DNA from: an uncultured Gammaproteobacteria bacterium
GTDB taxonomy: Bacteria > Patescibacteriota > Microgenomatia > UBA12405
Reading direction: 5' to 3'
DNA length: 48,026 nt
NCBI GenBank assembly: GCA_964432085.1
Contig: CAYSME010000001.1
Coordinates: 1-48,026 of the forward strand
Position 1 is the stretch's first letter. The number at the start of each line of letters is the position of its first letter. Made by a program: the position numbers and the translations under genes. A model generated the notes under the pieces. It worked only from the letters and a program-made list of their open reading frames with translations, was not told the DNA's origin and searched no databases. This document shows positions 1,554 through 41,792 of this stretch, in pieces.

Positions 1554-1574
1554 TTTTCCTCCTGTTTAATTAAT

Positions 1575-1680: not shown

Positions 1681-1696
1681 CCATATTAACAAAAAA

Positions 1697-2668: not shown

Positions 2669-2674
2669 ATAAAA

Positions 2675-10034: not shown

Positions 10035-10038
10035 GACT

Positions 10039-10087
10039 TCTCCCTTTCTTTAAGGGGAGATGTCCCGATTCATCGGGACAGAGGGGT
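10039..10087. repeat. GC-rich double-hairpin mini-element, copy F (intergenic)
   Basis: CTCCCTTtctttAAGGGGAG-at-GTCCCGATtcATCGGGAC-agaggggt. It lies between the GT4 stop (10034) and the likely acetyltransferase start (10111). Confidence 0.65.
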
Positions 10088-10110
10088 TTAAATCTGATAA
10101 AATTTACAAT

Positions 10111-10704: not shown

Positions 10705-10705
10705 T

Positions 10706-14792: not shown

Positions 14793-14793
14793 A

Positions 14794-15705
14794 ATGGATT
14801 TATCAGTCATAATTTTAAATTATAATTCTCGTGATTATCTTAAAAAATGTCTAGAAAGCATTTCTAAATCCAATATTGGTAACTATAAATATGAAATTAT
14901 TATTGTCGATAATAATTCTTCCGATGACAGTATTGAGTCAGCAAAAACAGTCAAATCTTCAAATTTTCATTTTTTAGAACTAAAAGATAATAGGGGATTT
15001 GCTCACGGCAATAATCAAGGATTACTAAAAATAGACCCTAAAACCAGATTTGTTCTTTTTTTAAACCCCGACACTATTGTTGAAAAAGACACTTTCAAAA
15101 AAATGATCGAATTTTTTGATCAAAATAAAGATGTCGATGCCGCCACTTGCCAAATTAATTTAGCCCTCACTGGTAAAATGCAGCCAGAATGCCATCGTGG
15201 ATTCCCCACTCCTTGGAATTCCTTTTGTTATTTTTCCGGCCTATCCAAACTATTTCCTAAATCAAAAACTTTTTCTGGTTATTTTATGGGCAATTTAGAT
15301 TTAAAAACCCCTCATAAAATCGATGCTTGTGTTGGAGCTTTTCTAATGGTTAAAAAAGAAGTTGGAGACAAAGTTAATTGGTGGAACGAAAAATACTTTT
15401 TTTATGGTGAAGATCTTGATTTTTGTTATCAAATCAAGAAAAACAATTTCAATTTATATTTTAATCCAAATTGCAAAATTACCCATTTTCAAGGAGTTTC
15501 TTCCGGATTAATTTCCAAAACTAAAAAAATTTCCAAAGCCTCCCGCGAAACCAAAATCAAAGTTGCCAAAGCCAGCACTAATGCTATGAGAATTTTTTAC
15601 CAAGAAAATTTATTTTCTCAATATTCAATCATCACTAAACTTTTAGTTATGTTTGGTATTAAAATACTAGAGCTTCAAAGAATCTTCAAAGCCAAATATT
15701 TATAA
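14794..15705 (+). CDS. glycosyltransferase family 2
   Basis: LSVIILNYNSRDYLKKCLESI, IIIVDNNSSDDS, FLNPDT and FYGEDLDFCYQ. Confidence 0.85.
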   Translation: MDLSVIILNYNSRDYLKKCLESISKSNIGNYKYEIIIVDNNSSDDSIESAKTVKSSNFHFLELKDNRGFAHGNNQGLLKIDPKTRFVLFLNPDTIVEKDTFKKMIEFFDQNKDVDAATCQINLALTGKMQPECHRGFPTPWNSFCYFSGLSKLFPKSKTFSGYFMGNLDLKTPHKIDACVGAFLMVKKEVGDKVNWWNEKYFFYGEDLDFCYQIKKNNFNLYFNPNCKITHFQGVSSGLISKTKKISKASRETKIKVAKASTNAMRIFYQENLFSQYSIITKLLVMFGIKILELQRIFKAKYL

Positions 15706-15747
15706 TCTAATATCTTCTAATATGTTCTAATATGTTCTAGAATATTC
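15704..15747 (+). promoter_or_regulatory. four tandem ~10-bp repeats (TTCTAATAT-like) immediately upstream of fic; contains -10-like hexamers
   Basis: aatCTAATAT-cTTCTAATAT-gTTCTAATAT-gTTCTAGAATAT, with one-helical-turn periodicity. TAGAAT lies 6 nt before the ATG at 15750. Confidence 0.5.
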
Positions 15748-15749
15748 TT

Positions 15750-16646
15750 ATGAACGATTATAATGATCATATTATTCAAATCGAAGCCCTAAAACTTTAT
15801 TTTGAAAAACTCGACACTCATCAAACTATCAAAAAAAATATTCTCCGTAATTCTTTGTTAAAGAGTGCTAGATTTTCAAGCAAAATAGAAGGTACTGACT
15901 CAAAATTAGAGATAAATAATCTTTATAAAGCCTACGTATATGTTACTTCTAAAAAATCACCTCAAAAATTATCTTTAAATTTATTTAAAGAACTTCATAA
16001 AATTGTTTTAAAAAATATTTCTTCAGATTGTGGTAATTTTAGAACTGATCCTTGTGCCATTTATAATACTGCCGGTGTTGCTATTTATTTAGCTCCTCCA
16101 GCCCAAAAAGTCATTAAATTACTTGATGATCTAATAGAAGAAATAAACAATAGTAAAGATCATTGTTTAATTAAAGCTGCTATTTTTCAATTTAAATTTG
16201 AAAAAATTCATCCATTTTTAGATGGTAATGGCCGTATTGGTCGACTTATTTCTTATTTAATTTTATATAAAAATGGTTTTTCCTTTAACGGTTATTTATC
16301 ACCAGAAGAATACATAAACAAATACCGTGAAATTTATTATGATTGTTTAGACTCAGATAAAAATTATCAACCCTTTATTAAATTCTTTTTAGAATCCATT
16401 TTAAATCAAATCAAAATAAGTTTTAATGATTTTAAAAATCCAAGTAACCTCAATCATCTTTTACCTCGCCGCCGTGAAATTTTTGAAATAATAAAAGATC
16501 ATCCTAATTGTTCTTTTGATTTTATCAGTCGTCGTTTTACTAAAATTAACCCTAAAACACTTCACTATGACTTATCTCAATTACAAAAAGAAAAATTAAT
16601 TATGAAAGCTGGTATTTCTCGTGGTGTTACTTATGTTATAAAATAA
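15750..16646 (+). CDS. Fic family protein (class II, N-terminal inhibitory helix) with C-terminal winged-HTH-like domain
   Basis: Canonical Fic motif HPFLDGNGRIGR. N-terminal (S/T)xxxE(G/N) inhibitory motif SSKIEG at aa 43-48. The C-terminal REIFEIIKDHPN ... LSQLQKEKLI resembles a wHTH. Confidence 0.9.
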   Translation: MNDYNDHIIQIEALKLYFEKLDTHQTIKKNILRNSLLKSARFSSKIEGTDSKLEINNLYKAYVYVTSKKSPQKLSLNLFKELHKIVLKNISSDCGNFRTDPCAIYNTAGVAIYLAPPAQKVIKLLDDLIEEINNSKDHCLIKAAIFQFKFEKIHPFLDGNGRIGRLISYLILYKNGFSFNGYLSPEEYINKYREIYYDCLDSDKNYQPFIKFFLESILNQIKISFNDFKNPSNLNHLLPRRREIFEIIKDHPNCSFDFISRRFTKINPKTLHYDLSQLQKEKLIMKAGISRGVTYVIK

Positions 16647-16651
16647 AAACT

Positions 16652-17773
16652 ATGAAGTACAAAACAAAACACATCGTTATTGATGCTCGCCTTTACGGAC
16701 CAAAACACACCGGTATTGGTCGCTATACCAAAAATCTTCTTAAGGCTTTAATTAAATCTCCTGATTTCAAAAAATATAAATTTACTTTAATTATTTACAA
16801 AAATCTTGAAGAAGAAATTAAAAAAGATTTAGGAAACAATTTTAATTACTTTACTACCAATATTAAGCACTATTCCCTAAGTGAACAGCTTTTTTTACCT
16901 TTTATAATTTATAGTCTAAAACCAGATTTAGTCCATTTCACTCATTTCAATAAACCAATCCTTTATTTTCCCAAATCTGTCATAACTATTCACGACTTAA
17001 TTAAACATTTTTTTAAAGGGAAAAATACCACCACGCGAAGTCAATTTTTATATAAAATAAAATATTTTGGTTATTTAATTTTAATCCGCACCATTGTCAC
17101 CAGAAATCAAATAATTGTCCCCAGTAATTTTTGGCGTGATTTTTTAATTCAAAAATATCATCTTAAAAATTCTCAAGTTGTCACCACCCACGAAGCTGTC
17201 GATCCTATTTTTCTAGCTAAAATTAATGATGAGGCCATCGAAAAAAAACCAGAAAATTATTTAATCTACACCGGAAATTTATACCCACACAAAAATATAA
17301 TTGTCCTTTTAAGAGCCTTAAAACATTTACCAGATGTCAATCTAAAAATTATCTGTGCTCGCAGTTTTTTTAGCGAAAAATTAACTAAACAAATTAAACA
17401 TTTCAAACTAAAAAAACAAGTCGAACTTCTTGGTTACCTTGATGATAAACAGTTTAAAGAAGTCTATAAAAATGCTCTAGCTCTGGTTCATCCATCTTTA
17501 ATGGAGGGTTTTAGTCTAACCGGTCTTGAAGCCATGGCTCTAAATTGTCCAGTAATTTCATCAAATTCCAGTTGTCTTCCTGAAATTTATGGCGATTCAG
17601 TTTTATATTTTGATCCTTATAATCCTGAAGATTTAATTGAAAAAATTAACCAATTAAAAGATAATCCAGACCTGCGTCAAAAATTAATTAATCTTGGACA
17701 TCAACAACTTAAGAAATACTCTTGGGACAAAACTGCCAAATTAACCATGGCAGTTTATAAAAAATTTTTATGA
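16652..17773 (+). CDS. glycosyltransferase family 4
   Basis: PSLMEGFSLTGLEAMALNCPVISSNSSCLPEIYGDSVLYFDP. Confidence 0.85.
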   Translation: MKYKTKHIVIDARLYGPKHTGIGRYTKNLLKALIKSPDFKKYKFTLIIYKNLEEEIKKDLGNNFNYFTTNIKHYSLSEQLFLPFIIYSLKPDLVHFTHFNKPILYFPKSVITIHDLIKHFFKGKNTTTRSQFLYKIKYFGYLILIRTIVTRNQIIVPSNFWRDFLIQKYHLKNSQVVTTHEAVDPIFLAKINDEAIEKKPENYLIYTGNLYPHKNIIVLLRALKHLPDVNLKIICARSFFSEKLTKQIKHFKLKKQVELLGYLDDKQFKEVYKNALALVHPSLMEGFSLTGLEAMALNCPVISSNSSCLPEIYGDSVLYFDPYNPEDLIEKINQLKDNPDLRQKLINLGHQQLKKYSWDKTAKLTMAVYKKFL

Positions 17774-18852
17774 TTCAGCCAAAAATTGCCTTGTTTTACG
17801 ATTGGTTAAACCAATGGGGCGGCGCTGAAAAAGTTCTACTCGACTTAATCAAACTTTATCCCAACGCACCAATCTACACTTTGGTTTACGACCCTAAAAA
17901 AACTAAATGGCTTCCCAACAATACTAAAATTATAACTTCATTCATAAATAAAATTCCCTTTTTCAAAAAAAATTCTATTTTTCAAACTCCATTTTATCCT
18001 CTAGCCGTAAAACAATTTGATTTTTCCAAATATGATATTGTCATTTCCACCACTCAAATTATCGGTCACGGTTTAAATGTTCCCCAAAAAACAAAATTTA
18101 TATGCTATTTTCACAACATTAATCGTTATGTCTATCAAACCCCATCCCAGTTTAAAATTTTAAAGCCACTCTTAAATCTGTACCAAAAATTAGATTTTAT
18201 TTATGGCCAAAAACCAGACTATTTATTTTGCAACTCTAAAACAGTTCAAAAAAGAATTATTAACGCTTATCACCGGCCTTCTAAGATAATCCATCCGGGT
18301 ATTGATACCTCCTTTTTTATTCCCACAAAAACCAAACCTAAAGAAAAATATTTTTTAATTGTTTCTCGACTTGTTTCTCATAAAAAAATCGACATTGCCA
18401 TCAAAGCTTGCCATAAGTTAAATCAAAAATTATATATCGTCGGCACCGGCCGAGACAAAAATAAATTAACTAATCTGGTTAATTCTCTTAATAACTCAAA
18501 TATAAAATTTTTTGACCAAGTTGATGATAATAAATTATTAAATCTCTACCAAAACTGCCAAGCTTTAATTTGTCCCCAATTGGAAGATTTTGGCTTAACT
18601 CCAATTGAGGCTCAAGCTTGTGGTAAACCGGTTATTGCCTATAATAGGGGAGGTTTAACCGAAACTGTTATTAATGGTAAGACCGGCATCTTTTTTAAAA
18701 AACAAACAGTAAAAAGTTTAATCTCTGCTATTAAGAAATTTAATCCAAACAATTTTTCAAAAAACATCTGCCAAAAGAATGCTCAAAAATTTTCAAATAT
18801 TAATTTTATGTTAAACTTTAAAAAAGAAATAGATCTCTTATGTCATCAATAA
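17770..18852 (+). CDS. glycosyltransferase family 4
   Basis: PQLEDFGLTPIEAQACGKPVIAYNRGGLTETVINGKTGIFF. ATGA overlap with the upstream gene. Confidence 0.85.
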   Translation: MIQPKIALFYDWLNQWGGAEKVLLDLIKLYPNAPIYTLVYDPKKTKWLPNNTKIITSFINKIPFFKKNSIFQTPFYPLAVKQFDFSKYDIVISTTQIIGHGLNVPQKTKFICYFHNINRYVYQTPSQFKILKPLLNLYQKLDFIYGQKPDYLFCNSKTVQKRIINAYHRPSKIIHPGIDTSFFIPTKTKPKEKYFLIVSRLVSHKKIDIAIKACHKLNQKLYIVGTGRDKNKLTNLVNSLNNSNIKFFDQVDDNKLLNLYQNCQALICPQLEDFGLTPIEAQACGKPVIAYNRGGLTETVINGKTGIFFKKQTVKSLISAIKKFNPNNFSKNICQKNAQKFSNINFMLNFKKEIDLLCHQ

Positions 18853-19925
18853 ATCATTATATTTTCATTCTTTGCGGCGGAACAGGACCTCGTCTTTGGC
18901 CCTTATCCAGAAGAAGTAATCCCAAACAATTTCTTTCACTTTTCGATAAAAAATCAATTTTAGAACAAACCATCCAAAGATCTCAACGAATCACTGACAC
19001 TAAAAATATTTACATTGTTTCCAATGAAATTTATAAAGACAAAATCATTAAAATTGCTCAAGACTTTAAATTAACTAAAAACATAATTATCGAACCAGAG
19101 AAAAAAAATACTGCCATGGCTATTCTTTATGCCACCATTAAAATTAAACAAATTGATCCCAACGCCATTATCAGTACTTTTCCTTCAGACCATTACATTA
19201 AAAACATTGTTCAATTAAAACAAACTCTCAATAAAGCCACCACCGTGGCTAATTTAACTGACTCTATTGTTACCATAGGAATAAAACCAACTAATCCACA
19301 AACTTCATTTGGTTATATCCAACCAGACAAAAAAACCGACGATTATTATACCGTTCACAAGTTTATTGAAAAACCTAATTCTAAAAAAGCTCAAAAACTA
19401 ATCGATAATAATGCTTTTTGGAACTCTGGTATCTATACCTTCTCTATTTCAACCTTAATTTCTGAATTTGAAAAATTGCAACCAGAATATTTCAAAATAG
19501 CCATAGATTTAGAAAAAAATTTAGATTATCCCAAAAAAATAATTCAAACTTATAAAAATGCTCCAAATCTATCCATTGATAGAGCCATCTCCGAAAAAAC
19601 ATCTAATATGGCCATGATTCCTGCTACTTTTGACTGGAGCGATATTGGAGAGTGGAAATCAATCTACTACAACTTATCTAAAAAAAATGATGATATTGTT
19701 TCTTTAAATAAAGCAGAATATGTTCAAGTGAATTCTAAAAAGTGTCTGATTCACACTTCCAAAAATAAGTTAATCGGTTTAGTTGGTGTTAATAATTTAG
19801 CCATAATCGATACTCCCGACTGTTTACTCATCTGTAACATAGCCCACAACGACAGTTATCATGTTAAAGATATCGTCTCTCAAATTGTCAAAAAAGAAAA
19901 ATTAAAAAAATATTTCTTAGATTAA
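18840..19925 (+). CDS. sugar-1-phosphate nucleotidyltransferase (mannose-1-phosphate guanylyltransferase-like, no cupin/PMI domain)
   Basis: N-terminal ILCGGTGPRLWPLSRRSNPKQFL, then FPSDHYI, and DWSDIGEW near the C-terminus. Confidence 0.75.
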   Translation: MSSINHYIFILCGGTGPRLWPLSRRSNPKQFLSLFDKKSILEQTIQRSQRITDTKNIYIVSNEIYKDKIIKIAQDFKLTKNIIIEPEKKNTAMAILYATIKIKQIDPNAIISTFPSDHYIKNIVQLKQTLNKATTVANLTDSIVTIGIKPTNPQTSFGYIQPDKKTDDYYTVHKFIEKPNSKKAQKLIDNNAFWNSGIYTFSISTLISEFEKLQPEYFKIAIDLEKNLDYPKKIIQTYKNAPNLSIDRAISEKTSNMAMIPATFDWSDIGEWKSIYYNLSKKNDDIVSLNKAEYVQVNSKKCLIHTSKNKLIGLVGVNNLAIIDTPDCLLICNIAHNDSYHVKDIVSQIVKKEKLKKYFLD

Positions 19926-19926
19926 A

Positions 19927-20565
19927 ATGAAAAAAAAATTATTTGCTATTTTTAAAAGAGCTATAGATATTATTGGGTCATTATTTCTTCTAATTCTATT
20001 TTCTCCCATCATATTAATTACCATGGTTCTAATCAAAATAACTTCACCCGGCCCTATTTTTTTTAAACAAAAAAGAGTTGGTAAAAATAGTTGCCAATTT
20101 TGGATGTATAAATTTCGTTCTATGTACACTGGCGATAATGATAAACGTTTAAAAGAAAATTATCCAGAACTTTGGAAAAAATATAAAAATGATGGCTGGA
20201 AATTGCCCATGAATGAAGATCCTCGTATTACTCCGATCGGTAAGAAAATTAGATCATTAACCATCGATGAGTTCCCACAACTTATAAATGTTTTAAAAGG
20301 AGATATGAGCTTGGTTGGCCCCAGAGCCTATCGAGAAGAAGAGCTTCAAGAACAAGAAGAAAAATATCCTAAAACTAAAAAATACATCAAAATTATTCGA
20401 TCAGCTAAACCTGGAATCACTGGTGTTTGGCAAACTTCAGGACGAAATGATATCTCATTTGAACAACGTGCCAAAATGGATGCTGAATATATTCAAAAAC
20501 AATCTTTCTTTGAAGAGATTTTAATCTTGCTTAAAACTCCAGCCTCCATGTTGTCTCGCTGGTAA
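19927..20565 (+). CDS. small (PglC/WbaP-C-like) undecaprenyl-phosphate sugar phosphotransferase
   Basis: KRAIDIIGSLFLLILFSPI, KFRSM, DEFPQLINVLKGDMSLVGPRA and PGITGVWQTSGRN. Confidence 0.85.
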   Translation: MKKKLFAIFKRAIDIIGSLFLLILFSPIILITMVLIKITSPGPIFFKQKRVGKNSCQFWMYKFRSMYTGDNDKRLKENYPELWKKYKNDGWKLPMNEDPRITPIGKKIRSLTIDEFPQLINVLKGDMSLVGPRAYREEELQEQEEKYPKTKKYIKIIRSAKPGITGVWQTSGRNDISFEQRAKMDAEYIQKQSFFEEILILLKTPASMLSRW

Positions 20566-27974: not shown

Positions 27975-29276
27975 ATGGTTCAAAAAATAAAAAACGTCCT
28001 ATTTCACCTACCAAAAAGTTATTTTTACAATTTCAGATACGGTTTTCCCACCAGAAAATTAACTCTTATTGGTATTACTGGAACAGACGGTAAAACCACC
28101 ACTTGTACCCTAATTAACGAAATATTAAAACAATCCGGATTAAAAACTGGGTTAATCACTACCATTGGTGCCAAAATTGGCGACAAAGAAATCGATACAG
28201 GATTTCATACCACCTCTCCTGATCCAGCTCTTCTTCAAAAAGTTTTTACCGATATGGTCAAAGAGGGTATAACCCATGTTGTTTGCGAGGCCACTTCACA
28301 TGCCTTAGACCAATACCGTTTTGGCGGCTGTAAGTTTGAAATTTCTGGTATTACCAACACTTCCCACGAACATTTAGATTACCATAAAACAATGGAATCA
28401 TACATCAAAACTAAACTAAGATTATTTTTAATGTCTAAAAATGCTGTTTTAAATAAAGACGATCAATCATTTGAAACCATCAAAAAACAAATTAAAATTC
28501 CTTTTAAAACTTTTAGTATTCAAAAAACTTCAGACTATCAGGCCCAAAAAATTAAACTGGAAGCAGACACTTTAAGTTTTCATGTTAACGGTCAAAAATT
28601 CATCACCGATAGTAGTTATGAATACCAGGTTTATAACATTTTGTTAGCTACCGCCATTTGTTATAAATTAGGGGTTAAATCTGAAACAATTCAGCAAGTG
28701 ATCAAACATTTTCCAGAGGCCAAAGGTCGAAGAGAAGAATTACAAAATGATCTTAAATTTAAAACTATTATTGATTTTGCCCACACTCCAAATGCCTTAG
28801 AAGCATCTCTTTCGTCACTCAAGAAAAATAATAAAGGAAATCTTATTACTATTTTTGGTGCCACTGGTGGTCGTGATCAAACCAAAAGGCCAATGATGGG
28901 AGAAGTTGTTTCCAAATTTTCCAACATCGCACTAATTACTGCTGACGATACCAGAAATGAAAAAGTTGAATTCATTAATAAACAAATTATCAGTGGAATT
29001 GATTCCAAAAAATCAGAATTAATTGATTATCAAGAAATTAAAACTAAAAAACAAATATTAACAGTACTTGAAACTGCCAAGAAAAAATTTGTTTACTTTA
29101 ATATCCCTAACCGTCAAGACGCTTTTAATTTGGCCATAAAGTTGGCTCAACCAAACGATGTTGTTATTGCTTGTGGTAAAGGTCATGAAACCACTATTCT
29201 TCATGGTAAAACCGAATATCCCTGGTCCGAAGCTGAAGCTTTCAGAACTGCTTTCAGATTACGAAAAATAAAATAA
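27975..29276 (+). CDS. murE: Mur ligase, MurE-like (UDP-MurNAc-L-Ala-D-Glu: diamino acid ligase), short N-terminus
   Basis: GITGTDGKTTT, HTTSPDP, EATSHALDQYR and NTSHEHLDYH. DDTR stands at the position of the DNPR specificity motif. Confidence 0.8.
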   Translation: MVQKIKNVLFHLPKSYFYNFRYGFPTRKLTLIGITGTDGKTTTCTLINEILKQSGLKTGLITTIGAKIGDKEIDTGFHTTSPDPALLQKVFTDMVKEGITHVVCEATSHALDQYRFGGCKFEISGITNTSHEHLDYHKTMESYIKTKLRLFLMSKNAVLNKDDQSFETIKKQIKIPFKTFSIQKTSDYQAQKIKLEADTLSFHVNGQKFITDSSYEYQVYNILLATAICYKLGVKSETIQQVIKHFPEAKGRREELQNDLKFKTIIDFAHTPNALEASLSSLKKNNKGNLITIFGATGGRDQTKRPMMGEVVSKFSNIALITADDTRNEKVEFINKQIISGIDSKKSELIDYQEIKTKKQILTVLETAKKKFVYFNIPNRQDAFNLAIKLAQPNDVVIACGKGHETTILHGKTEYPWSEAEAFRTAFRLRKIK

Positions 29277-29277
29277 T

Positions 29278-29868
29278 ATGCCCCAATTTAATTTGAAAAA
29301 TACCAATAGTATCGATGAAAATTATAAAAACGGTTTACTCCCTCAAAGAAATAATAAAGATTTATTTTATTTTCAAACAAGCAGTAGATCAGATCTGACT
29401 AATTTCAATTTAAGTTCCGAAAATCGCCGAATTTTAAAAAAAACTCAAGATTTTACTTTTGAAAAAATACTTCTAAAAGATTTTAGTTACGATTTTAAAG
29501 TCCAAAAAGAAATATCAAACTGGGTAAAAGAACTTGGATGGGATTTCCCCGTAAGTTCAATAAAGAATATTTTCAAAAATCATATTTTTAATTATCTATA
29601 TATATGGAAAAATCAATCAAATAATATAGTTGCCTATTCCATTTGTTATTTTTCAAAAGATATTAGTCATATTGCCTATGTTTTTTATAACCCAAAATTA
29701 ACTCATGGAAATTTACCTATTCGTCTAGTTCTTCAAGTTATTATTGACAGCCATGAATTAAATCTTAAATATTGTTATCTTGGTCGTTTTTCCCAAGATT
29801 CAGGTTTTTACAAACGCAACATGCCCGGTTTTGAATATTTCAAAGAAAATAATTGGGTTAATTTTTAA
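29278..29868 (+). CDS. ATE_C/Bpt-like putative aminoacyl-tRNA-dependent transferase (GNAT/Fem fold), C-terminal domain only
   Basis: SSENRRILKKTQ, AYVFYNP ... G and YCYLGRFSQDSGFYKRNMPGFEYF ... NW parallel the bacterial Bpt/ATE_C blocks SxxQKRxL, FYTFFDP and YLGYxI...MxYKxxFxxxE. The Cys-rich ATE_N domain is absent. Confidence 0.5.
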   Translation: MPQFNLKNTNSIDENYKNGLLPQRNNKDLFYFQTSSRSDLTNFNLSSENRRILKKTQDFTFEKILLKDFSYDFKVQKEISNWVKELGWDFPVSSIKNIFKNHIFNYLYIWKNQSNNIVAYSICYFSKDISHIAYVFYNPKLTHGNLPIRLVLQVIIDSHELNLKYCYLGRFSQDSGFYKRNMPGFEYFKENNWVNF

Positions 29869-29906: not shown

Positions 29907-31280
29907 ATGCATATACATATACTAGGCATCGCTGGCACTATGACTGCCTCCTTAGCCATTGCCCTCAGAAAAGAAGGCCACACGGTTACCGGATCTGATC
30001 AGGAAAAAATTTATCCTCCCATCAGCACTATTCTTAAAAAGGCCAAAATTGAAATCAACAATACTAAAATCGATAAAACTATTGATTTAGCTATAGTTGG
30101 AGGGTCATTCTCTAATTTTCAAAAAACTAAAGAAGAATTTGAACAAATCAAAAAACTAAAAATCAAATATATTTCTGCCAGTGAATTTATAGCCCAAAAA
30201 CTAATCCAAGAAAATTCAATTCTAATTGCCGGAACTTATGGTAAAACCACTATTACTTCATTGATCGCCTGGATTTTTGATCAAGCCAAATTAAACCCTA
30301 ACTATATGTTTGGCGGCAAATCTGTAAACTATTTTCCATCAATTAATATTTCCCCATCAAATTGGTCCATCATTGAAGCAGATGAATCTATTCATGGTCT
30401 CGACACTCAAGCTAAATTTTTATATTACCCTGTCAAATTTTTATTACTCACTAGTGCCGATTGGGAACATAAAGACTCCTATTCGTCCGAAATTGAAAAC
30501 TTCAACGCCTTTAAAAAACTTGTCTTAAATGTTCCCAAAGAAGGTATTCTATTTATAAATTCTCAAGGCCATCAAACCAAAGAATTAAGTCTTTATTCAA
30601 AAGCCAAAATAATTAATTACAATTCACCAGATTCCAATTATTCCATCCAAAAAACAAAAATTAAAAAAAACCACACTATTTTGTTTATTAAAACACCCAG
30701 AAATATTCTTAAAATAAAAACTCAACTAATTGGTCAATTTAATTTTGAAAATATTTTAGCTTCCATCGCTGTTACAGATAGTTTAAAAATTCCTCAAACC
30801 AAAATTAAACAAGCCATTTTAAAATTTAAAGGTGTTAATCGTCGTCTTGAAAAAATTTATGATCAAAAAAAGATAATTATTTTTGATGATTTTGCCCAAT
30901 CACCCAACAGAATTCAATCTACTATAGAAGCAATTAAAATGCATTATCCTAAAAATAATATTAAAATTCTATATCATCCCCACGCTTCCTTTATTCAGCA
31001 CCAAGAAATTCTAAAAGAATTTAAAAATGTTTTTGATCTGGCTTCCGAAGTTGTTTTATCAAAATTGATATTTAGTAAAAATATTGATAAAAATAAACGC
31101 GTTACCGCCAAAGATTTTAAAGAAGCTATTGGTGATAAATTAATTTATCTTCCAATAGAAGAAGATATTTGTTCTTTTTATAAAAAAAACCTAAAAAAAG
31201 GTGACATCTTAATAAATATGAGTTCTGGTGGATACAGTGGAAATAAAATTATCAAATCTGTTATTAATTCTATAAAATAA
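29907..31280 (+). CDS. Mur ligase of the MurC/Mpl clade, Mpl-like by motif
   Basis: MHIHILGIAGTMTASLAIALRKEGHTVTGSDQEKIYPPISTILKK matches E. coli Mpl MRIHILGICGT ... GHEVTGSDANVYPPMSTLLEK. Further matches are GTYGKTT, IIEADE, FDDFAQSPN and C-terminal MSSGGYSG (Mpl has MSNGGFGG). Confidence 0.75.
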   Translation: MHIHILGIAGTMTASLAIALRKEGHTVTGSDQEKIYPPISTILKKAKIEINNTKIDKTIDLAIVGGSFSNFQKTKEEFEQIKKLKIKYISASEFIAQKLIQENSILIAGTYGKTTITSLIAWIFDQAKLNPNYMFGGKSVNYFPSINISPSNWSIIEADESIHGLDTQAKFLYYPVKFLLLTSADWEHKDSYSSEIENFNAFKKLVLNVPKEGILFINSQGHQTKELSLYSKAKIINYNSPDSNYSIQKTKIKKNHTILFIKTPRNILKIKTQLIGQFNFENILASIAVTDSLKIPQTKIKQAILKFKGVNRRLEKIYDQKKIIIFDDFAQSPNRIQSTIEAIKMHYPKNNIKILYHPHASFIQHQEILKEFKNVFDLASEVVLSKLIFSKNIDKNKRVTAKDFKEAIGDKLIYLPIEEDICSFYKKNLKKGDILINMSSGGYSGNKIIKSVINSIK

Positions 31281-32616: not shown

Positions 32617-33651
32617 ATGATGCATTTATACCTAGGCCTCTTGCTCTTCTCTTTCTTAATTACCAGCATATTAGTCGTCCCTTTTATCAACCTTCTTTAC
32701 AGACTAAAATTTCAGCGACGAGTTCAAAAAACCACCGATTTTCAAAATAAAAGAGCTGCTATTTTTGATAAATTTCACAATCAAAAATCAGGCACACCAG
32801 TTGGTGGTGGCTTATTGATCATAACTTCAATTTGTATAATGTTCACCTTTTTATTCCCCATCCTTAAATTTTCTCGAATTTTCATTTCATCAAACTATGC
32901 CATTAATGCCGAAATTATTATTATCTTTTTTACTTTTATTAGTTTTGGACTGCTTGGACTTTATGATGATGTTATGAAATTTTTTGGTTTCAAAAAAACC
33001 GGATTTTTCGGATTAAAAATGTCTTATAAATTTATTTTGCAAATAATAATTTCTTTGATAATTTCATTAATGATTTATCTTCAGCTAAGAATTGATTTTA
33101 TCTACATTCCGTTTTTAGGAGCAGTTAAATTAGGTTGGTTTTTTATTCCTATTTCTGTCATTTTTATCACCGGTTTTGCTAATTTTTTCAACATCACCGA
33201 TGGTTTAGATGGCCTATCTTGTGGACTTTTAACAATTGCTCTTTTTGCTTTCTGGATTTTAGCCAGTACCTCGTTGGATACCATTCTTTCTTCATTCATT
33301 GCTCTTTGGATTGGCGCTTTAATTGCTTTTCTTTATTTTAACGTTTATCCTGCCAGAATCTGGCTCGGAGACGTTGGATCTTTATCATTTGGAGCTACCA
33401 TCGCCGTTATCGCTTTACTTTTAGGTAAAGTGGTTCCATTGGTTATTGTTGGATTTCCTTTCATAGTCGAGGGTATGTCCAGTGCTATTCAATTGCTTAG
33501 TAAAAAATATTTTAAAAAGAAACTTTTTCCAGCTGCTCCAATCCATTTAACTTTGCAAAATATCGGTTGGGAAGAGCCCAAAATTGTCTTTAGGGCTTGG
33601 TTAGCCGGGATTATATTAGCAATATTTGGACTATGGTTAGGACTAAATTAG
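32617..33651 (+). CDS. mraY: phospho-N-acetylmuramoyl-pentapeptide transferase
   Basis: GTPVGGG, NITDGLDGLS, GDVGSLSFGA and PIHLTLQ; polytopic. Confidence 0.92.
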   Translation: MMHLYLGLLLFSFLITSILVVPFINLLYRLKFQRRVQKTTDFQNKRAAIFDKFHNQKSGTPVGGGLLIITSICIMFTFLFPILKFSRIFISSNYAINAEIIIIFFTFISFGLLGLYDDVMKFFGFKKTGFFGLKMSYKFILQIIISLIISLMIYLQLRIDFIYIPFLGAVKLGWFFIPISVIFITGFANFFNITDGLDGLSCGLLTIALFAFWILASTSLDTILSSFIALWIGALIAFLYFNVYPARIWLGDVGSLSFGATIAVIALLLGKVVPLVIVGFPFIVEGMSSAIQLLSKKYFKKKLFPAAPIHLTLQNIGWEEPKIVFRAWLAGIILAIFGLWLGLN

Positions 33652-34175
33652 AACTACAACAAGAAATAGAAAAATATATCGGTCTGCCTTATAGCAAGAA
33701 TATTATTAAAGACGGAAAAATTACCAAAGAACAAGTTTTGGGAGGTAAAGGTAATTGTCTTCAACTCGCCACTGAAACTATTAGATTAGCTCAAAAACAA
33801 AATATTGATTTAACTAAATTAAATAATCAGAAATTCTACAATTTTCAAAAAAGAAATCATATTGGCATTGATTGTTCAGGTTTGGTTTCCAATTTACTAA
33901 ACTTTTATTTCGGAACAGATTTAAATCCAAGAAAAACCTCTGCTGATATGTTGACCTCATCTCCGCTTTCTAAAGAAATAAAACCAAGTGAAATTAAAAC
34001 TGGTGATTTGATTCGTCAAAAAAACGGCAACCATATTTTATTTATCATTGAAAAACAAGGCGATAAAATCATTTACGTCGACAGTTCTCGTGAAGGCAGG
34101 GGAGTAAAGTTTGGAAAAGTCGACATTACCGATAAAAATTTTCAACACCAAGGATTTTTTCGATTAACAATCTAA
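33633..34175 (+). CDS. NlpC/P60 (C40)-like cysteine peptidase without signal peptide
   Basis: IGIDCSGLVSNLL (catalytic Cys context) and GDLI ... NGNHILFII (His context). The start was set to ATG 33633, which overlaps the mraY end by 19 nt. There is no N-terminal hydrophobic segment. Confidence 0.5.
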   Translation: MVRTKLELQQEIEKYIGLPYSKNIIKDGKITKEQVLGGKGNCLQLATETIRLAQKQNIDLTKLNNQKFYNFQKRNHIGIDCSGLVSNLLNFYFGTDLNPRKTSADMLTSSPLSKEIKPSEIKTGDLIRQKNGNHILFIIEKQGDKIIYVDSSREGRGVKFGKVDITDKNFQHQGFFRLTI

Positions 34176-34180
34176 ACTAT

Positions 34181-34208
34181 GTAGAGACGTTGTACACAAC
34201 GTCTCTAC
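34181..34208. terminator. perfect GC-containing palindrome between convergent genes (possible bidirectional terminator / dispersed hairpin element)
   Basis: GTAGAGACGTTGT-ac-ACAACGTCTCTAC has 13-nt arms. There is no adjacent U/A tract on either side. Confidence 0.45.
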
Positions 34209-34225: not shown

Positions 34226-34384
34226 TTACTTTTCTTCAATTAATTCTCGGTATTTCAATGGATTTAAAGATAAAATTTCCACTTCAGTCCCACATTCACC
34301 ACATTCAATAATATCTCCCACCATTGTATTCTCGGTTATTTCAATTTCTTTTTGACAATCCGGACAGATAATTTTTTCGTTCAT
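34226..34384 (-). CDS. LysW-like zinc-ribbon small protein (52 aa), not in the ORF track
   Basis: MNEKIICPDCQKEIEITENTMVGDIIECGECGTEVEILSLNPLKYRELIEEK. The CPxC-x17-CxxC layout and the GD(I)IxCxxCGxEVEI ... L.P.L pattern match LysW/ArgW carrier proteins, but the C-terminal EDWGE tail is absent. Confidence 0.55.
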   Translation of the reverse strand: MNEKIICPDCQKEIEITENTMVGDIIECGECGTEVEILSLNPLKYRELIEEK

Positions 34385-34395
34385 ATTTTAATAAA

Positions 34396-34401
34396 ATTAT
34401 A
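34396..34401 (-). promoter_or_regulatory. -10 box (TATAAT on minus strand), 11 nt upstream of the LysW-like ATG
   Basis: Plus-strand attata at 34396-34401. It mirrors the plus-strand TATAAT at 34407-34412. Confidence 0.4.
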
Positions 34402-34406
34402 AATAG

Positions 34407-34412
34407 TATAAT
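34407..34412 (+). promoter_or_regulatory. -10 box TATAAT, 11 nt upstream of the PLP-enzyme ATG
   Basis: Exact TATAAT with no SD between it and the ATG at 34424. Confidence 0.4.
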
Positions 34413-34423
34413 TAATCTATTAT

Positions 34424-35245
34424 ATGTCAAACACACCTTTAATCAAATTAGAAAATGTCTATTTCAAACGGGAAGATTTAAATGAAACTGGCTCAGCCAA
34501 AGACCGGGCTATGATTTTTCAAATTGAAAACCTAAAAAAACAAGGTTTTAAATCGGCCGTGATCTCCAGTACTGGTAATGCTGCTATCTCTGCTGCTCAT
34601 TTTTGCCATATCAACAAAATTGATTTAACTATTTTTGTTTCCCCAAAAATCAATAAAAATAAATTTGACTTACTTAAGCAAGGAGGCGGTCAAATTTTTA
34701 TTTCTAATCAGCCAATTAGTGAATCAATTAAGTTTGCTAAAAAAAATCATGCTTATCTTCTTCGTCAATCCACCGACCCCAGCGCTTTGATTGGATACCA
34801 AGAAATTGGCAAGGAATTAATGGATCAATTACCTCAAATTACCAGTGTTTTTATCCCTGTTGGCAGCGGCACAACTCTTTTGGGTATTTCTAAAAGTTTA
34901 AAACCATCAGTTAAAATCTATGCCGTCCAACCGGCTAACAATTGTCCATTATCTAAAATTTTTGACTCAAATTATCAGCCAGAAACAGAGATTATCACAG
35001 ATGCTCTCTCGGCTAAATATCTTCCTTTAAAATCTCAAATCATTACCGCTATCAAAAATAGTAACGGTTCCGGACTAGTCGTTCAAAATAATGAAATCAT
35101 GGATGCCCAAATAAAATTGTCTTCAGATCAAATAAAAACTTCTTTTGAAGGTGCTATGGCCTTCGCCGGCCTTAAAAAAGCAATTAAAAACAACCTGGAA
35201 ATAGGCGATTATCCAGTTATAGTTTTAACCGGATGTCAAAGATAA
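34424..35245 (+). CDS. fold-type II PLP-dependent enzyme, threonine-synthase-like (short, 273 aa)
   Basis: TPLIKLENVYFKREDLNETGSAKDRA (PLP-lysine context as in TGSFKDRG), SSTGNAAISAAHFC, STDPSALIGYQEIGKEL and IPVGSGTTLLG. Confidence 0.7.
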   Translation: MSNTPLIKLENVYFKREDLNETGSAKDRAMIFQIENLKKQGFKSAVISSTGNAAISAAHFCHINKIDLTIFVSPKINKNKFDLLKQGGGQIFISNQPISESIKFAKKNHAYLLRQSTDPSALIGYQEIGKELMDQLPQITSVFIPVGSGTTLLGISKSLKPSVKIYAVQPANNCPLSKIFDSNYQPETEIITDALSAKYLPLKSQIITAIKNSNGSGLVVQNNEIMDAQIKLSSDQIKTSFEGAMAFAGLKKAIKNNLEIGDYPVIVLTGCQR

Positions 35246-36345
35246 ATTTAGAATCTATCATTAATCAATCACCTTATATTTTCTTTTTTTTAGTGGTTGA
35301 TAAATTTTTAGATATAGAAATTCCCCAATTAAAAAATTTCGAAAAAATTTATCTTTCTGATTATCCTTCAATAAAAGAAAAAAATAGTGGTAAATTACTT
35401 GCCAATAAAAAAGTTATTGATTATATTTTAAAAAAATCCCAAAAAACTAATCTAATTCCAGCAATTATTCCCTTTAAACCATCAGCTAAAATTGATTTTA
35501 TTTGCAAAAAATATAATTGGATAAATATCAGTAACCCCGGACCAATCAATCGTTTTCTGGAAGATAAAATCAAATTTGCCAAACTTTGCCAAAAATATAA
35601 ATTACCAACCATTCCTTTTTCAATTGATTCTTTTTCGCAAAAAAATTTTTTAAAATACCAAAAAATTTATAGCCAAAAGCTAGTTATTCAAACTCATTTT
35701 GGTTGGGCTGGTAATAGTACATTTTCAGCCGAATCTTGGGATGAAATTAAAAATAAAATTTCTCCAGATATAATCGTCAAATATAGTCCTTTTATTCAAT
35801 CTTCCTATTCTCTATTAAACAATTGCTGTTTCACTAAATTTGGATTAATTCAAAGTCCTCCAGCACTCCAATACACCGGAATTACTCCCTACACCAAAAA
35901 TCTTTTTACTACTGTGGGTCGTCAATGGCCATCAATGGCTTCTCAAAAAATAATCAACAGGATAAAAAAAATAACCAATAATTTTGGAAAAATTTTAAAA
36001 AATGTTAACTATAAAGGTTTTTTTGGTTTAGATTTTTTAATTACCAATAATGAAATTTTTTTATTGGAATGTAATCCTCGCCTAACTGCTTCTTTCAGTT
36101 TTTATACCAAAATAGAACAAAATCAAAACATTACTCCTCTTTTTTATTTTCACCTCGCAGAATTTTTAAAGCTAAATTATCAAATTAATCTCAAAAAAGA
36201 ACAATCAAGATTTGATAATAAAAAAATTATCGGTTCCGAAATAACTCCTAAAAATAAATTTAATCACACTTATAAAAAATTAAATTTTGATTATCCTCTA
36301 TCAAAAACCACCAATCCAATTTCTATTTCTCCAAAAATTAAATGA
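35233..36345 (+). CDS. ATP-grasp family ligase, substrate unknown
   Basis: EDKIKFAKLCQKYKLPTIP, VIQTHFGWAGNSTF and YKGFFGLDFLITNNEIFLLECNPRLTASFSF (CPSase-like E-x-NPR block). Confidence 0.65.
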   Translation: MSKINLESIINQSPYIFFFLVVDKFLDIEIPQLKNFEKIYLSDYPSIKEKNSGKLLANKKVIDYILKKSQKTNLIPAIIPFKPSAKIDFICKKYNWINISNPGPINRFLEDKIKFAKLCQKYKLPTIPFSIDSFSQKNFLKYQKIYSQKLVIQTHFGWAGNSTFSAESWDEIKNKISPDIIVKYSPFIQSSYSLLNNCCFTKFGLIQSPPALQYTGITPYTKNLFTTVGRQWPSMASQKIINRIKKITNNFGKILKNVNYKGFFGLDFLITNNEIFLLECNPRLTASFSFYTKIEQNQNITPLFYFHLAEFLKLNYQINLKKEQSRFDNKKIIGSEITPKNKFNHTYKKLNFDYPLSKTTNPISISPKIK

Positions 36346-37514
36346 AAGAAACTAAGTCCCCATTATTGTTTTTAGTTTTTAGTCTGGTCTTTATCGGCCT
36401 GATTTTTATTTCCATCTCATCACTGGGTGAAGCTAGTTCATCTATTGGTGACAAGTTTTTTTATATAAAAAAACAAGGATTTTGGCTTATAGTTGGAATA
36501 ATATGTTTTTATATCACTTCTAAAATTAATATCAAAACCATTAAAAAATTTTCTTTTATCTTTTATGCTATTTCCATTCTCAGTTTAATTTTAGTTCTAA
36601 TTCCCAATCTAGGAAATGAGGCTCTCGGAGCCAGACGTTGGTTAAACTTGGGATTTACCAGTATTCAGCCTTCCGAAATTTTAAAACTAACCTCAATTAT
36701 TTATTTTCCTTTTCTATTTTCTGATCCTAAAAATCGTAATATAAAAAATCTAATTTTTTATTTAGGGTTGCCTTTTATTCTAATAATTATTGAACCAAAT
36801 CTTAGTACTGCCATTTTAATTTCCGCCATAGTTAGCTCTATTTATTACATTTCTGGAGGCAATGTGGTTCCGCTTTTTTACATTTTTTGCATTATCCTGA
36901 TAGTCAGTGTTCCTTTAGTTTTTTTATCACCATACCGATCTGCCCGGTTAAAAACATTTCTAGACCCGCAAGAAAACACCGAAACTTCCTCATACCACAG
37001 TAATCAAATAATTTTATCTCTTTCTTCCGGTGGTTTTTTTGGTAAAGGTTTTGCTAATTCAGATCAAAAATATAAATTTCTTCCCAAAATCTCTACTGAC
37101 TCTATTCTCGCCGTTATTGGTGAAGAAATTGGTTTTATTGGAATTTTTTCTGTTTTGTTAATTTATCTCTCTTTAATAAATTACCTTCTAAAATTCTCTC
37201 AAATTATAGAAGATCCGTTTCAAAGTTTATTAGTGGCTGGAAGTGCTTGTTGGATTGCCTATCAAAGCTTGATTAATATTTCTGCCATTGCCGCCCTTAT
37301 ACCTTTAACTGGGGTCCCTCTTCCTTTTATTTCTTATGGTGGATCTTCTCTGGTCACTCTTTTTATTGTAGTTGGATTAGTCAGAAATATCGAAAAAAAC
37401 CAAAAAATGCTGATATACTCAAAGAGTGACCATAACAAAAAAGACGATCATAATCACCGGAACACATCTAACCCCAGCCTTAGAACTCATTCATCAACTG
37501 AAAAACGACCATAA
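36342..37514 (+). CDS. ftsW: SEDS-family peptidoglycan glycosyltransferase FtsW
   Basis: GARRWLNLGFTSIQPSEILKL, TDSILAVIGEEIGFIG and PLTGVPLPFISYGGSS. It sits in the dcw position. Confidence 0.85.
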   Translation: MKETKSPLLFLVFSLVFIGLIFISISSLGEASSSIGDKFFYIKKQGFWLIVGIICFYITSKINIKTIKKFSFIFYAISILSLILVLIPNLGNEALGARRWLNLGFTSIQPSEILKLTSIIYFPFLFSDPKNRNIKNLIFYLGLPFILIIIEPNLSTAILISAIVSSIYYISGGNVVPLFYIFCIILIVSVPLVFLSPYRSARLKTFLDPQENTETSSYHSNQIILSLSSGGFFGKGFANSDQKYKFLPKISTDSILAVIGEEIGFIGIFSVLLIYLSLINYLLKFSQIIEDPFQSLLVAGSACWIAYQSLINISAIAALIPLTGVPLPFISYGGSSLVTLFIVVGLVRNIEKNQKMLIYSKSDHNKKDDHNHRNTSNPSLRTHSSTEKRP

Positions 37515-41288: not shown

Positions 41289-41540
41289 CTAATAATAAAC
41301 TTCTCTTCGATGAGCTACTTTTAGTATATAAATCTTATTTCCTTTTATTTCAAAAATGACTCGATAATCTCCAATTCGATATCTATATTCACCTAATTTA
41401 AAATTAACCAATCTTTTCGATATTTTTAATGGATCATTTCTCAGTAAAATCATTTTTTTACCAATTCTTTTTTTAACCACACTGTCTAATTTACCAATTT
41501 CTGATACCGCTTTTTTTGTAATTAAAATCTCATATTCCAC
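41289..41540 (-). CDS. RelE/ParE-family type II toxin
   Basis: 83 aa with KLGEYRYRIGDYRVIFEI ... IYILKVAHRREVY, typical of RelE/ParE. There is a 3-nt gap to the upstream antitoxin gene. Confidence 0.8.
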   Translation of the reverse strand: MEYEILITKKAVSEIGKLDSVVKKRIGKKMILLRNDPLKISKRLVNFKLGEYRYRIGDYRVIFEIKGNKIYILKVAHRREVYY

Positions 41541-41543
41541 TAT

Positions 41544-41792
41544 CTATATTTTGCCAAAAATTTCTTCAAAAGGATACACCTCACCATTTTTAATATTTTT
41601 TCGGGCCTCTTCTATATCTTTTTTATATTCAGGATTAGCCAAAGCTAATAAATCTTCCAACATATCAATATTTATAATTGCTGATTTAATTTTTCCTCGA
41701 CTAGAAATCAAAACAAAATTTTTCTTGTTCTCGACCAAATCTAATGTATCAGCTAAATTGTTTCTTAAAATTGTACTTGTTACTGTGTTCAT
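41544..41792 (-). CDS. Phd/YefM-family type II antitoxin
   Basis: 82 aa with an N-terminal TILRNNLADTLDLVENKKNFVLISSRGK pattern. It is directly upstream of the toxin. Confidence 0.75.
   Translation of the reverse strand: MNTVTSTILRNNLADTLDLVENKKNFVLISSRGKIKSAIINIDMLEDLLALANPEYKKDIEEARKNIKNGEVYPFEEIFGKI

Follow-up and report, generated by a model that had tools for sequence, protein, structure and literature searches.

The window analyzed here is a stretch of 48,026 nucleotides (positions 1 to 48,026 of contig CAYSME010000001.1, assembly GCA_964432085.1) that contains a division and cell wall (dcw) cluster. Between mraY and ftsW of this cluster, where murD normally lies, there are four genes (Table 1): one for an NlpC/P60-family cysteine peptidase/amidase, a small open reading frame (ORF) on the opposite strand whose product has the zinc-ribbon fold of the amino-group carrier LysW, one for a fold-type II enzyme dependent on pyridoxal phosphate (PLP), and one for an ATP-grasp ligase. 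Gene order and natural gene fusions among relatives indicate that the four genes form one module with a link to peptidoglycan synthesis, and to MurD in particular. The reading favored here, with a probability of about three in four, is that this carrier-type module works at the MurD step of the peptidoglycan pathway.

An earlier note on this DNA gave the ORFs with the coordinates and sequences that we find, and described the small ORF, the PLP enzyme, and the ATP-grasp ligase as a three-gene unit in the usual place of murD. The link among the three genes and the position in the window both stand. The note overlooked a fourth member, the NlpC/P60 gene between mraY and the small ORF, as well as the invariant -EEK tail and the adjacency and fusions to MurD in other lineages.

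Organization of the Locus

The cluster, in a genome of Candidatus Shapirobacteria (Microgenomates, candidate phyla radiation), starts with rsmH, ftsI, murE, a gene similar to arginyl-tRNA-protein transferases (ATE_C), a murC-like gene, murA, mraY, and nlpC/P60, and continues with the LysW-like gene (minus strand), the PLP enzyme gene (PALP, after its domain), the ATP-grasp gene, ftsW, murG, an ortholog in the position of ftsQ, ftsA, and ftsZ. The PALP and ATP-grasp genes overlap by 13 nt and the ATP-grasp gene and ftsW by 4 nt, with translational coupling of the ATP-grasp gene to both its upstream (PALP) and its downstream (ftsW) neighbor. In the spacer of the divergent LysW-like/PALP pair, a TATAAT can be read 11 nt before each ATG. 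The earlier note saw in this a sign consistent with co-regulation. Promoter-like sites in the region do not exceed chance (14, against 14.6 in shuffled sequences), but a TATAAT-like box recurs in the orthologous spacers, which are 14–86 bp long. On the other side of the small gene, where it converges with the NlpC/P60 gene, there is a hairpin with a perfect 12-bp stem and a 4-nt loop (−19.3 kcal/mol, z = −4.6, with none of 200 shuffles as stable), which is probably a bidirectional terminator. A scan of the window with Rfam finds no RNA family.

A Small Protein of the LysW Fold

The small ORF encodes MNEKIICPDCQKEIEITENTMVGDIIECGECGTEVEILSLNPLKYRELIEEK. Its product matches the Pfam family Zn_ribbon_LysW (PF21344) with 46.5 bits, for a gathering score of 27, and the LysW of T. 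thermophilus (PDB 3wwl) with a phmmer E value of 7e-7. The AlphaFold2 (AF2) model has a pLDDT of 85.7, falling to 65 in the tail, and its six best Foldseek neighbors in the PDB are all LysW proteins, from Thermus, Thermococcus, and Sulfolobus (TM scores 0.71–0.76, root mean square deviation 1.5–2.4 Å). Identity with the LysW structures is 24–44%, and Cys7, Cys10, Cys28, and Cys31, the zinc-ribbon cysteines of the LysW type, are invariant. Pfam, 3wwl, and Foldseek thus agree with the earlier view of this ORF as a LysW-like zinc ribbon. Homologs of the small protein are 69–88% identical in genomes where the ATP-grasp proteins are only 53–60% identical, and the median dN/dS is 0.07. This pattern of substitution in relatives indicates an ORF under strong purifying selection, not a chance ORF.

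The protein is not, for all that, a typical LysW. It clears the Pfam threshold but falls under the cut-offs of the LysW equivalog models (38.7 versus 53.2 bits for TIGR01206, 37.9 versus 75 for NF041070), and the last nine positions of the equivalog model, which make up the tail, are unmatched. The distant members in loci L085 and L086 are likewise below these cut-offs. Canonical LysW has the tail consensus EDWGE and bears its cargo on the γ-carboxyl of the terminal Glu; a LysW-type tail is acidic and ends in Glu, and this one ends E-E-K. The C-terminus is EEK in 118 of 120 database homologs, the two exceptions being longer ORFs on very short contigs. The terminal K is present in all 75 species-level orthologs, preceded by E, Q, or T at −2 and by E at −3. 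Among 74 additional loci, which belong to deeply diverged lineages, it is present in 71 (typically as EEEK); two have EEKG instead, and in one the sequence is truncated by the end of the contig. Because the variants EQK, ETK, EAEK, and EVEK occur, no single Glu of the tail is fixed, and Lys is the sole universally conserved tail residue of the family (~270 homologs). The earlier note was right that the acidic EDWGE tail is not there. The alignments indicate, however, that it has been replaced and not simply lost, a conserved tail about five residues shorter and ending in Lys instead of Glu standing in its place. Loci L127 and L153, from two samples, share an allele ending in EEKG, with one Gly beyond the usual terminal Lys; if real, this allele would point to the side chain rather than the α-carboxylate of Lys as the reactive group.

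Annotation of the gene is uneven: it is named "LysW" in some NCBI and JGI records and uncalled in others. In L173 the ORF (11379–11552, minus strand, GTG start) falls in a gap of the gene calls, and in L088 (8864–9091, minus strand) the adjoining PALP call is over-extended through its antisense strand (374 amino acids versus ~310).

The names given by PGAP and JGI imply that the protein is a standard LysW/ArgW carrier in the synthesis of lysine or arginine, and the LysW fold agrees with this. Against it stand the scores under both equivalog cut-offs, the tail ending in Lys and not Glu, the dcw/murD context, and the lack of any LysX, LysZ, LysY, LysJ, or LysK gene in the window or nearby in ~170 related loci. 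The canonical lysine or arginine role is effectively refuted by context, tail, and partners.

The Three Enzymes

The ATP-grasp protein has a match of 32.2 bits to Pfam ATP-grasp_3, and its AF2 model (pLDDT 94.6) has the three-domain ATP-grasp fold, matching 607 ATP-grasp entries of the PDB at E ≤ 1e-3 in Foldseek. D267, E279, N281, and R283, of the Mg/ATP-binding Asp...Glu-x-Asn type, are invariant in the family, which comprises 232 clusters at E < 1e-30 in a profile search of 1.84 billion representatives. An exact-sequence look-up of the window's protein finds nothing on record. The 50 best structural neighbors are biotin carboxylase, PurK, and PurT, with TM scores of ~0.6 (0.55–0.62) and 11–15% identity, and do not include LysX, RimK, or Ddl. 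No LysX or RimK model of NCBIfam matches at E ≤ 1; the best match in NCBIfam is the uncharacterized "biotin carboxylase-like" PRK06524 (100 bits versus a cut-off of 684), and sequence and profile searches against the PDB give only motif-level matches to carbamoyl-phosphate synthetase. The earlier suggestion of a dedicated LysX/ArgX-type partner is hence abandoned, and a RimK-type ligase is rejected on the same grounds. The similarity to Ddl is below threshold too (14.4 bits versus 24 for Dala_Dala_lig_C, 14.8 versus 245 for TIGR01205). Remoter relatives of the ATP-grasp protein occur without the other module genes, in unrelated amidoligase contexts (L089 and L091). In L089 (the context of P0329), a 493-amino-acid relative is part of another cluster, together with a further ATP-grasp protein (ATPgrasp_ST), MATCAP, an N-formylglutamate-amidohydrolase-like protein (FGase), a Ddl-like protein, GNAT, and a 7TM-transglutaminase protein. 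This cluster looks like a peptide or tail-modification system.

The PLP enzyme has a PALP domain (161.9 bits) and is N-terminally shortened. Its PLP lysine is K26, and in a deep alignment of orthologs K26, the motif S-S-(T/S)-G-N-A-A, K80, S116, D118, Y125, and E242 are invariant or nearly so. Because its best NCBIfam matches are archaeal-type threonine synthases (103.7 bits versus a cut-off of 358), and the long orthologs in L092 and L173 bear an N-terminal motif (W..LLP...L.L.EG.TP) that is ThrC-like by comparison with B. subtilis ThrC, the enzyme is assigned to the threonine-synthase (ThrC) lineage. The phosphate-binding Arg of the ThrC motif N-P-x-R-x-E-G-Q appears to be replaced, as a tentative hand alignment puts the near-invariant Ala121 at its position, with another Arg, Arg114, conserved. 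The position of the second catalytic base of racemases, just before G-N, is Thr in 40 sequences and Ser in 10, but Ser or Thr is found there in ThrC and CysK too. The earlier label "racemase-like" is a possibility for this enzyme of ThrC lineage.

The NlpC/P60 protein matches Pfam NLPC_P60 with 26.1 bits (gathering score 23). The end of mraY overlaps its ORF, for which the ATG at 33633 is the probable start codon. All 37 orthologs compared share D80-C81-S82 and H134, so that catalytic residues are invariant in all three enzymes of the module. Inspection of the sequence reveals no N-terminal hydrophobic signal or signal peptide, and the enzyme is predicted to be cytoplasmic. It is only remotely related to solved murein endopeptidases (Spr/MepS, E ~0.1); enzymes of this family typically act on the γ-D-glutamyl-Lys/diaminopimelate bond. 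The gene keeps its position in ~75 of 84 loci and is, judging from this synteny, the fourth member of the module.

Gene Order, Layouts, and Fusions

In a scan of species-representative genomes, 111 relatives yielded 80 loci that were kept. Their gene order is nearly invariant: rsmH, ftsI, murE, the ATE-like gene, murC, (murA), and mraY, then the module as nlpC, lysW-like (minus strand), PALP, and ATP-grasp, followed by ftsW, murG, further genes, ftsZ, ileS, and rodA. When one adds the contexts of distant members and a metagenome scan with a profile built on those, the synteny of the module is conserved in ~170 loci, in three layouts. Type A (~25 loci) has nlpC-murD-lysW-like (minus strand)-PALP-ATP-grasp outside any dcw cluster, and includes a clade labeled Candidatus Gottesmanbacteria/CPR3 and two unrelated contexts (L085 and L086); its MurD proteins pass the TIGR01087 cut-off (258 and 228 bits versus 212). 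Type B (~20 loci) has murE-ATE-like-murC-murB-murA-(ddl)-murF-mraY-nlpC-lysW-like (minus strand)-PALP-ATP-grasp-ftsW-murG, with murF identified by NCBIfam; here the module occupies the slot of murD, the only stem-peptide gene not present. Type B′, the layout of the window and of Shapirobacteria/Woesebacteria, differs from Type B in that its cluster has no murB, ddl, or murF either.

Natural fusions complete the picture. PALP is fused to ATP-grasp in P0395 (782 amino acids), ATP-grasp to NlpC/P60 in P0298 (Peregrinibacteria), P0318, P0351, and P0375, and, in a search with the Type A MurD, NlpC/P60 to MurD in P0450, P0476, and P0504. A fusion of ATP-grasp to GNAT also occurs among the ATP-grasp family clusters. 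The fusions link PALP to ATP-grasp, ATP-grasp to NlpC/P60, and NlpC/P60 to MurD, and the small gene in every case lies next to these genes in divergent orientation. The association of the small ORF with the two enzymes is thus confirmed by synteny and by the PALP::ATP-grasp fusion, the place of the trio next to mraY and ftsW is kept in related loci of the candidate phyla radiation (CPR), and the tie to peptidoglycan synthesis, which the earlier note had seen in the dcw location, is strengthened by the murD slot and by the adjacency and fusions to MurD.

The fusion of NlpC/P60 to MurD, together with the nlpC-murD operon and the supposed host dependence of CPR organisms, could also fit a salvage route, in which a YkfC-like NlpC/P60 enzyme harvests D-Glu from imported murein peptides for MurD while the other three genes re-process or re-ligate fragments. 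The ATP-grasp::NlpC/P60 and PALP::ATP-grasp fusions, however, bind the peptidase to a ligase and a PLP enzyme and not to transporters, no peptide transporter is conserved at the loci, and the NlpC/P60 protein is only a distant relative of known murein endopeptidases. We consider salvage highly improbable.

The earlier note proposed a route to a non-canonical stem-peptide or cross-bridge amino acid. In a reading along these lines, with a side-chain or cross-bridge branch, the -Glu-Lys-COOH tail would mimic a stem tripeptide, and the ATP-grasp ligase and a PLP racemase would make a D-amino acid and attach it to a Lys ε-amine, as the D-Asp ligase and racemase of Enterococcus do, or the pair would substitute for Alr/Ddl. 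The pairing of ATP-grasp with a fold-type II PLP enzyme and the Ser/Thr at the second-base position of serine and aspartate racemases are compatible with this logic. A canonical ddl (motif EINTIPGLT) shares the cluster with the module in at least six Type B loci (L108, L114, L122, L123, L133, and L142), however, and the module travels with and fuses to murD, not to murE, murF, or a fem-like gene. Because of this co-occurrence with ddl and with murD instead of murF, a divergent Ddl substitute is disfavored, as it is by the low score of the ligase with Dala_Dala_lig_C. Moreover, a separate ATE_C/Fem-like gene already lies between murE and murC. A cross-bridge branch is very unlikely.

Distribution of mur Genes

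As the earlier note had stated, murD, murF, murB, and ddl are absent from the cluster of the window; Pfam and NCBIfam scans and tblastn find none of them in the whole 48 kb. Two wider searches are to be read with caution. Among the best 120 of 8000 candidates scored in a search for homologs of the Gottesmanbacteria MurD there is no MurD of Shapirobacteria or Woesebacteria, which does not show that they lack it. Likewise, 2.43 Mb of loci (±8–10 kb each) contain no match to MurI or Alr motifs, which is uninformative at the level of the genome.

These absences invite another explanation, the non-orthologous replacement of MurD. In murD-less clusters the ATP-grasp enzyme itself would ligate residue 2 to uridine diphosphate N-acetylmuramic acid (UDP-MurNAc)-L-Ala, the PLP enzyme would make the D-amino acid, and the small protein and NlpC/P60 would be accessory. 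The module sits exactly in the murD slot of clusters that in other respects encode the full set of MurA, B, C, E, F, Ddl, MraY, and MurG, and there is no murD within ±8–10 kb in more than 110 such loci. Yet in other lineages a module with an ATP-grasp protein of the same length and the same conserved residues co-occurs with a MurD that passes TIGR01087, or is fused through NlpC/P60 to MurD. The ATP-grasp protein lacks a nucleotide-binding extension, the invariant -EEK carrier is left unexplained, and these genomes may just have murD at another site, as Gottesmanbacteria have it outside the dcw cluster. Replacement of MurD therefore seems unlikely, and a module that works with MurD is preferred.

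The MurE of the window scores 349 bits with the murE model (cut-off 257) but begins at model position 75 and has no N-terminal UDP-binding domain, and MurE orthologs are 400–455 amino acids long throughout. The Type B MurF likewise begins at model position 73 (related spans are L088:142–1332 and L088:5867–7114). Without the N-terminal domain, MurE and MurF may bind the nucleotide substrate differently or use another acceptor. The 196-amino-acid gene between murE and murC, with weak ATE_C similarity, is conserved in all Type B and B′ loci and is fused to MurC in a 645-amino-acid protein of L087 (3331–5268). Its similarity suggests that the product may be a tRNA-dependent aminoacyl transferase in stem-peptide synthesis. 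The MurC-like ligase reaches 245 bits, against 335 for the murC equivalog, and shows substantial similarity to Mpl (186 bits); its substrate may be other than plain L-Ala.

A Proposed Carrier-Based Model

From the families, the folds, the conserved tail, the synteny, and the fusions we infer a carrier role, an attachment site, a cargo, and a reaction for each enzyme. The small protein, a LysW fold whose flexible, acidic tail ends in an invariant residue, looks like a carrier that reacts through its terminus. It would act as LysW does, but through its terminal Lys. Fold-type II PLP chemistry requires a free α-amine, and only a cargo linked by its carboxyl to an amine of the carrier provides one; as Lys is the sole conserved residue of the tail, acylation of the Lys ε-amine by a carboxyl of the cargo is the most economical model. 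PylC and the D-Asp ligase of Enterococcus are ATP-grasp enzymes that acylate Lys ε-amines. The ATP-grasp enzyme would thus tether the carboxyl of an L-amino acid to the Lys ε-amine at the expense of ATP, the likeliest cargo being L-Glu held by its γ-carboxyl, which leaves the α-amino acid center free. The PLP enzyme would act on this center, by inversion to the D form or by another α/β transformation, the NlpC/P60 enzyme would release the product, and MurD would ligate it to UDP-MurNAc-L-Ala. LysW-type carriers ancestrally carry Glu or aminoadipate; this, the bond preference of NlpC/P60, and the co-transcription or fusion of the amidase with MurD make D-Glu, or an analog at position 2, the likeliest product. 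In the clade of the window, the module would act from the place of murD between mraY and ftsW and would share a transcript with ftsW and murG. Driven by ATP and mediated by a carrier, the pathway would be an alternative to MurI. This composite load-modify-release scheme on the terminal Lys, supplying or processing the residue that MurD adds (D-Glu or an analog), is more tentative than the assignment of the module to the MurD step, and we would rate it at somewhat under even odds.

Alternatively, the zinc ribbon might be a non-covalent structural or regulatory subunit, for example an adaptor that assembles or regulates the PLP enzyme, the ATP-grasp enzyme, and MurD, with the enzymes using free substrates, as a racemase and a dipeptide-making ligase would. 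The tail is indeed unlike every proven carrier tail, being five residues shorter in a protein below the LysW equivalog cut-off, and free amino acids are the simplest source of the free amine that the PLP enzyme needs. But in a protein of the LysW fold, an invariant residue at the very end of a flexible, acidic tail (pLDDT 65) is characteristic of a terminus that reacts, and a ligase and an amidase, fused in several lineages, suit a cycle of attachment and release. A purely non-covalent role is improbable.

Several points weigh against the composite load-modify-release scheme. The nearest folds of the ATP-grasp protein are carboxylases and formyl-transferases and not known protein-tail ligases. 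In a profile search against the PDB, threonine dehydratase, serine racemase, and ThrC score about equally for the PLP enzyme, and we know of no Glu racemase of the ThrC family; nor is a carrier obviously needed for racemization. Lineages L085 and L090 have no recognizable NlpC/P60 at the locus. Finally, there is no murD within ±10 kb in ~90 loci of the window's own clade, where the coupling to MurD is argued from position and by analogy with other lineages.

A bolder version, which we regard as doubtful, is that part of the stem peptide of Microgenomates is made on a protein carrier: D-Glu, or an L-Ala-D-Glu unit, would be generated on the terminal Lys of the LysW-like protein and then passed on to the enzymes of the Mur pathway. 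If the dipeptide is made, L-Ala would be added by the product of the ATE-like gene beside or fused to the Mpl-like MurC. This reading fits the lack of the UDP-binding N-terminal domain in MurE and MurF. If true, it would allow bacteria with genomes of the Shapirobacteria type to make their wall in the absence of murI and perhaps also of murD. No earlier step in the synthesis of peptidoglycan precursors is known to depend on a carrier protein, and the LysW fold would be put to a new chemical use, with a terminus that bears an amine (Lys) instead of a carboxyl (Glu).

Comparison with Known Systems

The LysW/ArgW carriers of Thermus, Sulfolobus, and Thermococcus, and AmCP of Streptomyces, share with the small protein the zinc-ribbon fold, small size, strong acidity, and a flexible C-terminal tail, and their genes also lie beside those of an ATP-grasp ligase and a releasing hydrolase. 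They differ from it in the tail (EDWGE with terminal Glu, instead of E-E-K-COOH with an invariant terminal Lys), in the ligase and hydrolase (of the LysX/RimK clade and an M20 metallopeptidase, LysK, instead of another ATP-grasp and NlpC/P60), in the intervening enzymes (kinase, reductase, and aminotransferase, instead of a fold-type II PLP enzyme), and in the context (lysine or arginine biosynthesis, instead of peptidoglycan genes).

The butirosin proteins BtrI/BtrJ/BtrK, to which the earlier note had pointed, still provide the best analogy in logic: a carrier, an ATP-grasp enzyme that tethers Glu by its γ-carboxyl, and a PLP enzyme acting on the tethered, free α center, as the module enzymes may do. 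However, BtrI is a phosphopantetheinyl acyl carrier protein with a thioester, BtrK is a fold-type III decarboxylase, the pathway belongs to secondary metabolism, and the Btr proteins have no homology to those of the module. MurI and MurD (or MurD2/MurL in Xanthomonas) serve the same pathway step, as the module is adjacent or fused to MurD or in its slot, but MurI and MurL have no homology to the module, whose proposed chemistry is ATP- and carrier-dependent.

An ATP-grasp enzyme paired or fused with a papain-like cysteine amidase acting on the same amide bond is found in RimK-S6, in tubulin tyrosine ligase with vasohibin-MATCAP, and in glutathionylspermidine synthetase/amidase (CHAP). The target tail is acidic (-EE-X) as well, and the remote homolog of the module ATP-grasp in L089 lies beside MATCAP. 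Unlike the module, these systems belong to protein modification or thiol metabolism and have no PLP enzyme, zinc-ribbon carrier, or link to a Mur ligase. The D-Asp ligase of Enterococcus faecium (Aslfm) with its racemase, and PylC, are ATP-grasp enzymes that acylate a Lys ε-amine and are paired with an enzyme that supplies a D- or otherwise unusual amino acid. Instead of a protein tail they modify UDP-MurNAc-pentapeptide or free lysine, and no close sequence relation to the module was detected.

Other Features of the Window

Directly upstream of the division cluster lies a predicted surface-polysaccharide locus, with glycosyltransferases (GT4 and GT2), a Wzy-like O-antigen ligase/polymerase, a hexapeptide acyltransferase, a nucleotidyltransferase, and a Bac_transf priming enzyme. 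The run is broken by a gene with a Fic domain; a DUF4012 protein follows. The left end of the window has a 23S-rRNA-intervening-sequence (bAvd-like) protein adjoining a methyl-cycle set (S-adenosylmethionine synthetase, PfkB kinase, and S-adenosylhomocysteine hydrolase). Between ftsZ and ileS there is a ParE-toxin/Phd-YefM-antitoxin pair, which looks like a strain-specific insertion because related loci have only ~180 bp there. Many records of metagenome-assembled genomes of Microgenomates (L007, L008, L012, and others) are titled "uncultured Gammaproteobacteria bacterium" despite gene content and synteny like those of Shapirobacteria. These titles look like placeholder or erroneous names.

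Table 1. Coordinates of the module, its flanks, and other features of the window
Feature	Position	Strand	Basis
NlpC/P60-family cysteine peptidase/amidase gene	33597..34175	+	Pfam NLPC_P60 match
Hairpin	34181..34208	no strand	Fold-energy scan versus shuffles
LysW-fold zinc-ribbon ORF, 52 amino acids	34226..34384	-	Pfam PF21344 and structure match
Divergent intergenic spacer, 39 bp	34385..34423	no strand	Read from sequence
Fold-type II PLP enzyme (PALP) gene, 273 amino acids	34424..35245	+	PALP domain
ATP-grasp ligase gene, 370 amino acids	35233..36345	+	ATP-grasp_3 match
mraY, left flank of murD slot	32617..33651	+	Orthologous to Glycos_transf_4 genes of L001 and L003
ftsW, right flank of murD slot	36342..37514	+	FTSW_RODA_SPOVE, 303 bits
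murE	27975..29276	+	
ATE_C-like gene	29278..29868	+	
murC-like gene	29907..31280	+	
bAvd-like protein gene	52..414	-	
Methyl-cycle set	447..3976		
Predicted surface-polysaccharide locus	4976..20565	+	
Fic-domain gene	15750..16646		
ParE/Phd-YefM pair	41289..41792	-	

Implications

Few bacterial pathways have been mapped as well, or targeted by as many drugs, as the synthesis of peptidoglycan precursors, for which, to our knowledge, there is no protein-carrier step. On the reading favored here, the module extends the amino-group-carrier paradigm to the cell-wall cluster and the MurD step in a large CPR radiation of uncultured, ultra-small bacteria. It is undescribed in the literature searched, which pointed only to a paper on MurI of Saccharimonas. 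If the model holds, this would be the third biological role of amino-group-carrier-like proteins, after lysine and arginine synthesis and secondary metabolism, and the common annotation "lysine biosynthesis protein LysW" would have to be corrected in many organisms whose lysine is not made by that route. The model would also offer a concrete, testable account of how D-Glu is obtained or attached in some CPR lineages whose Mur pathways look incomplete. The module proteins are small and soluble, which makes reconstitution in vitro feasible without cultivation.

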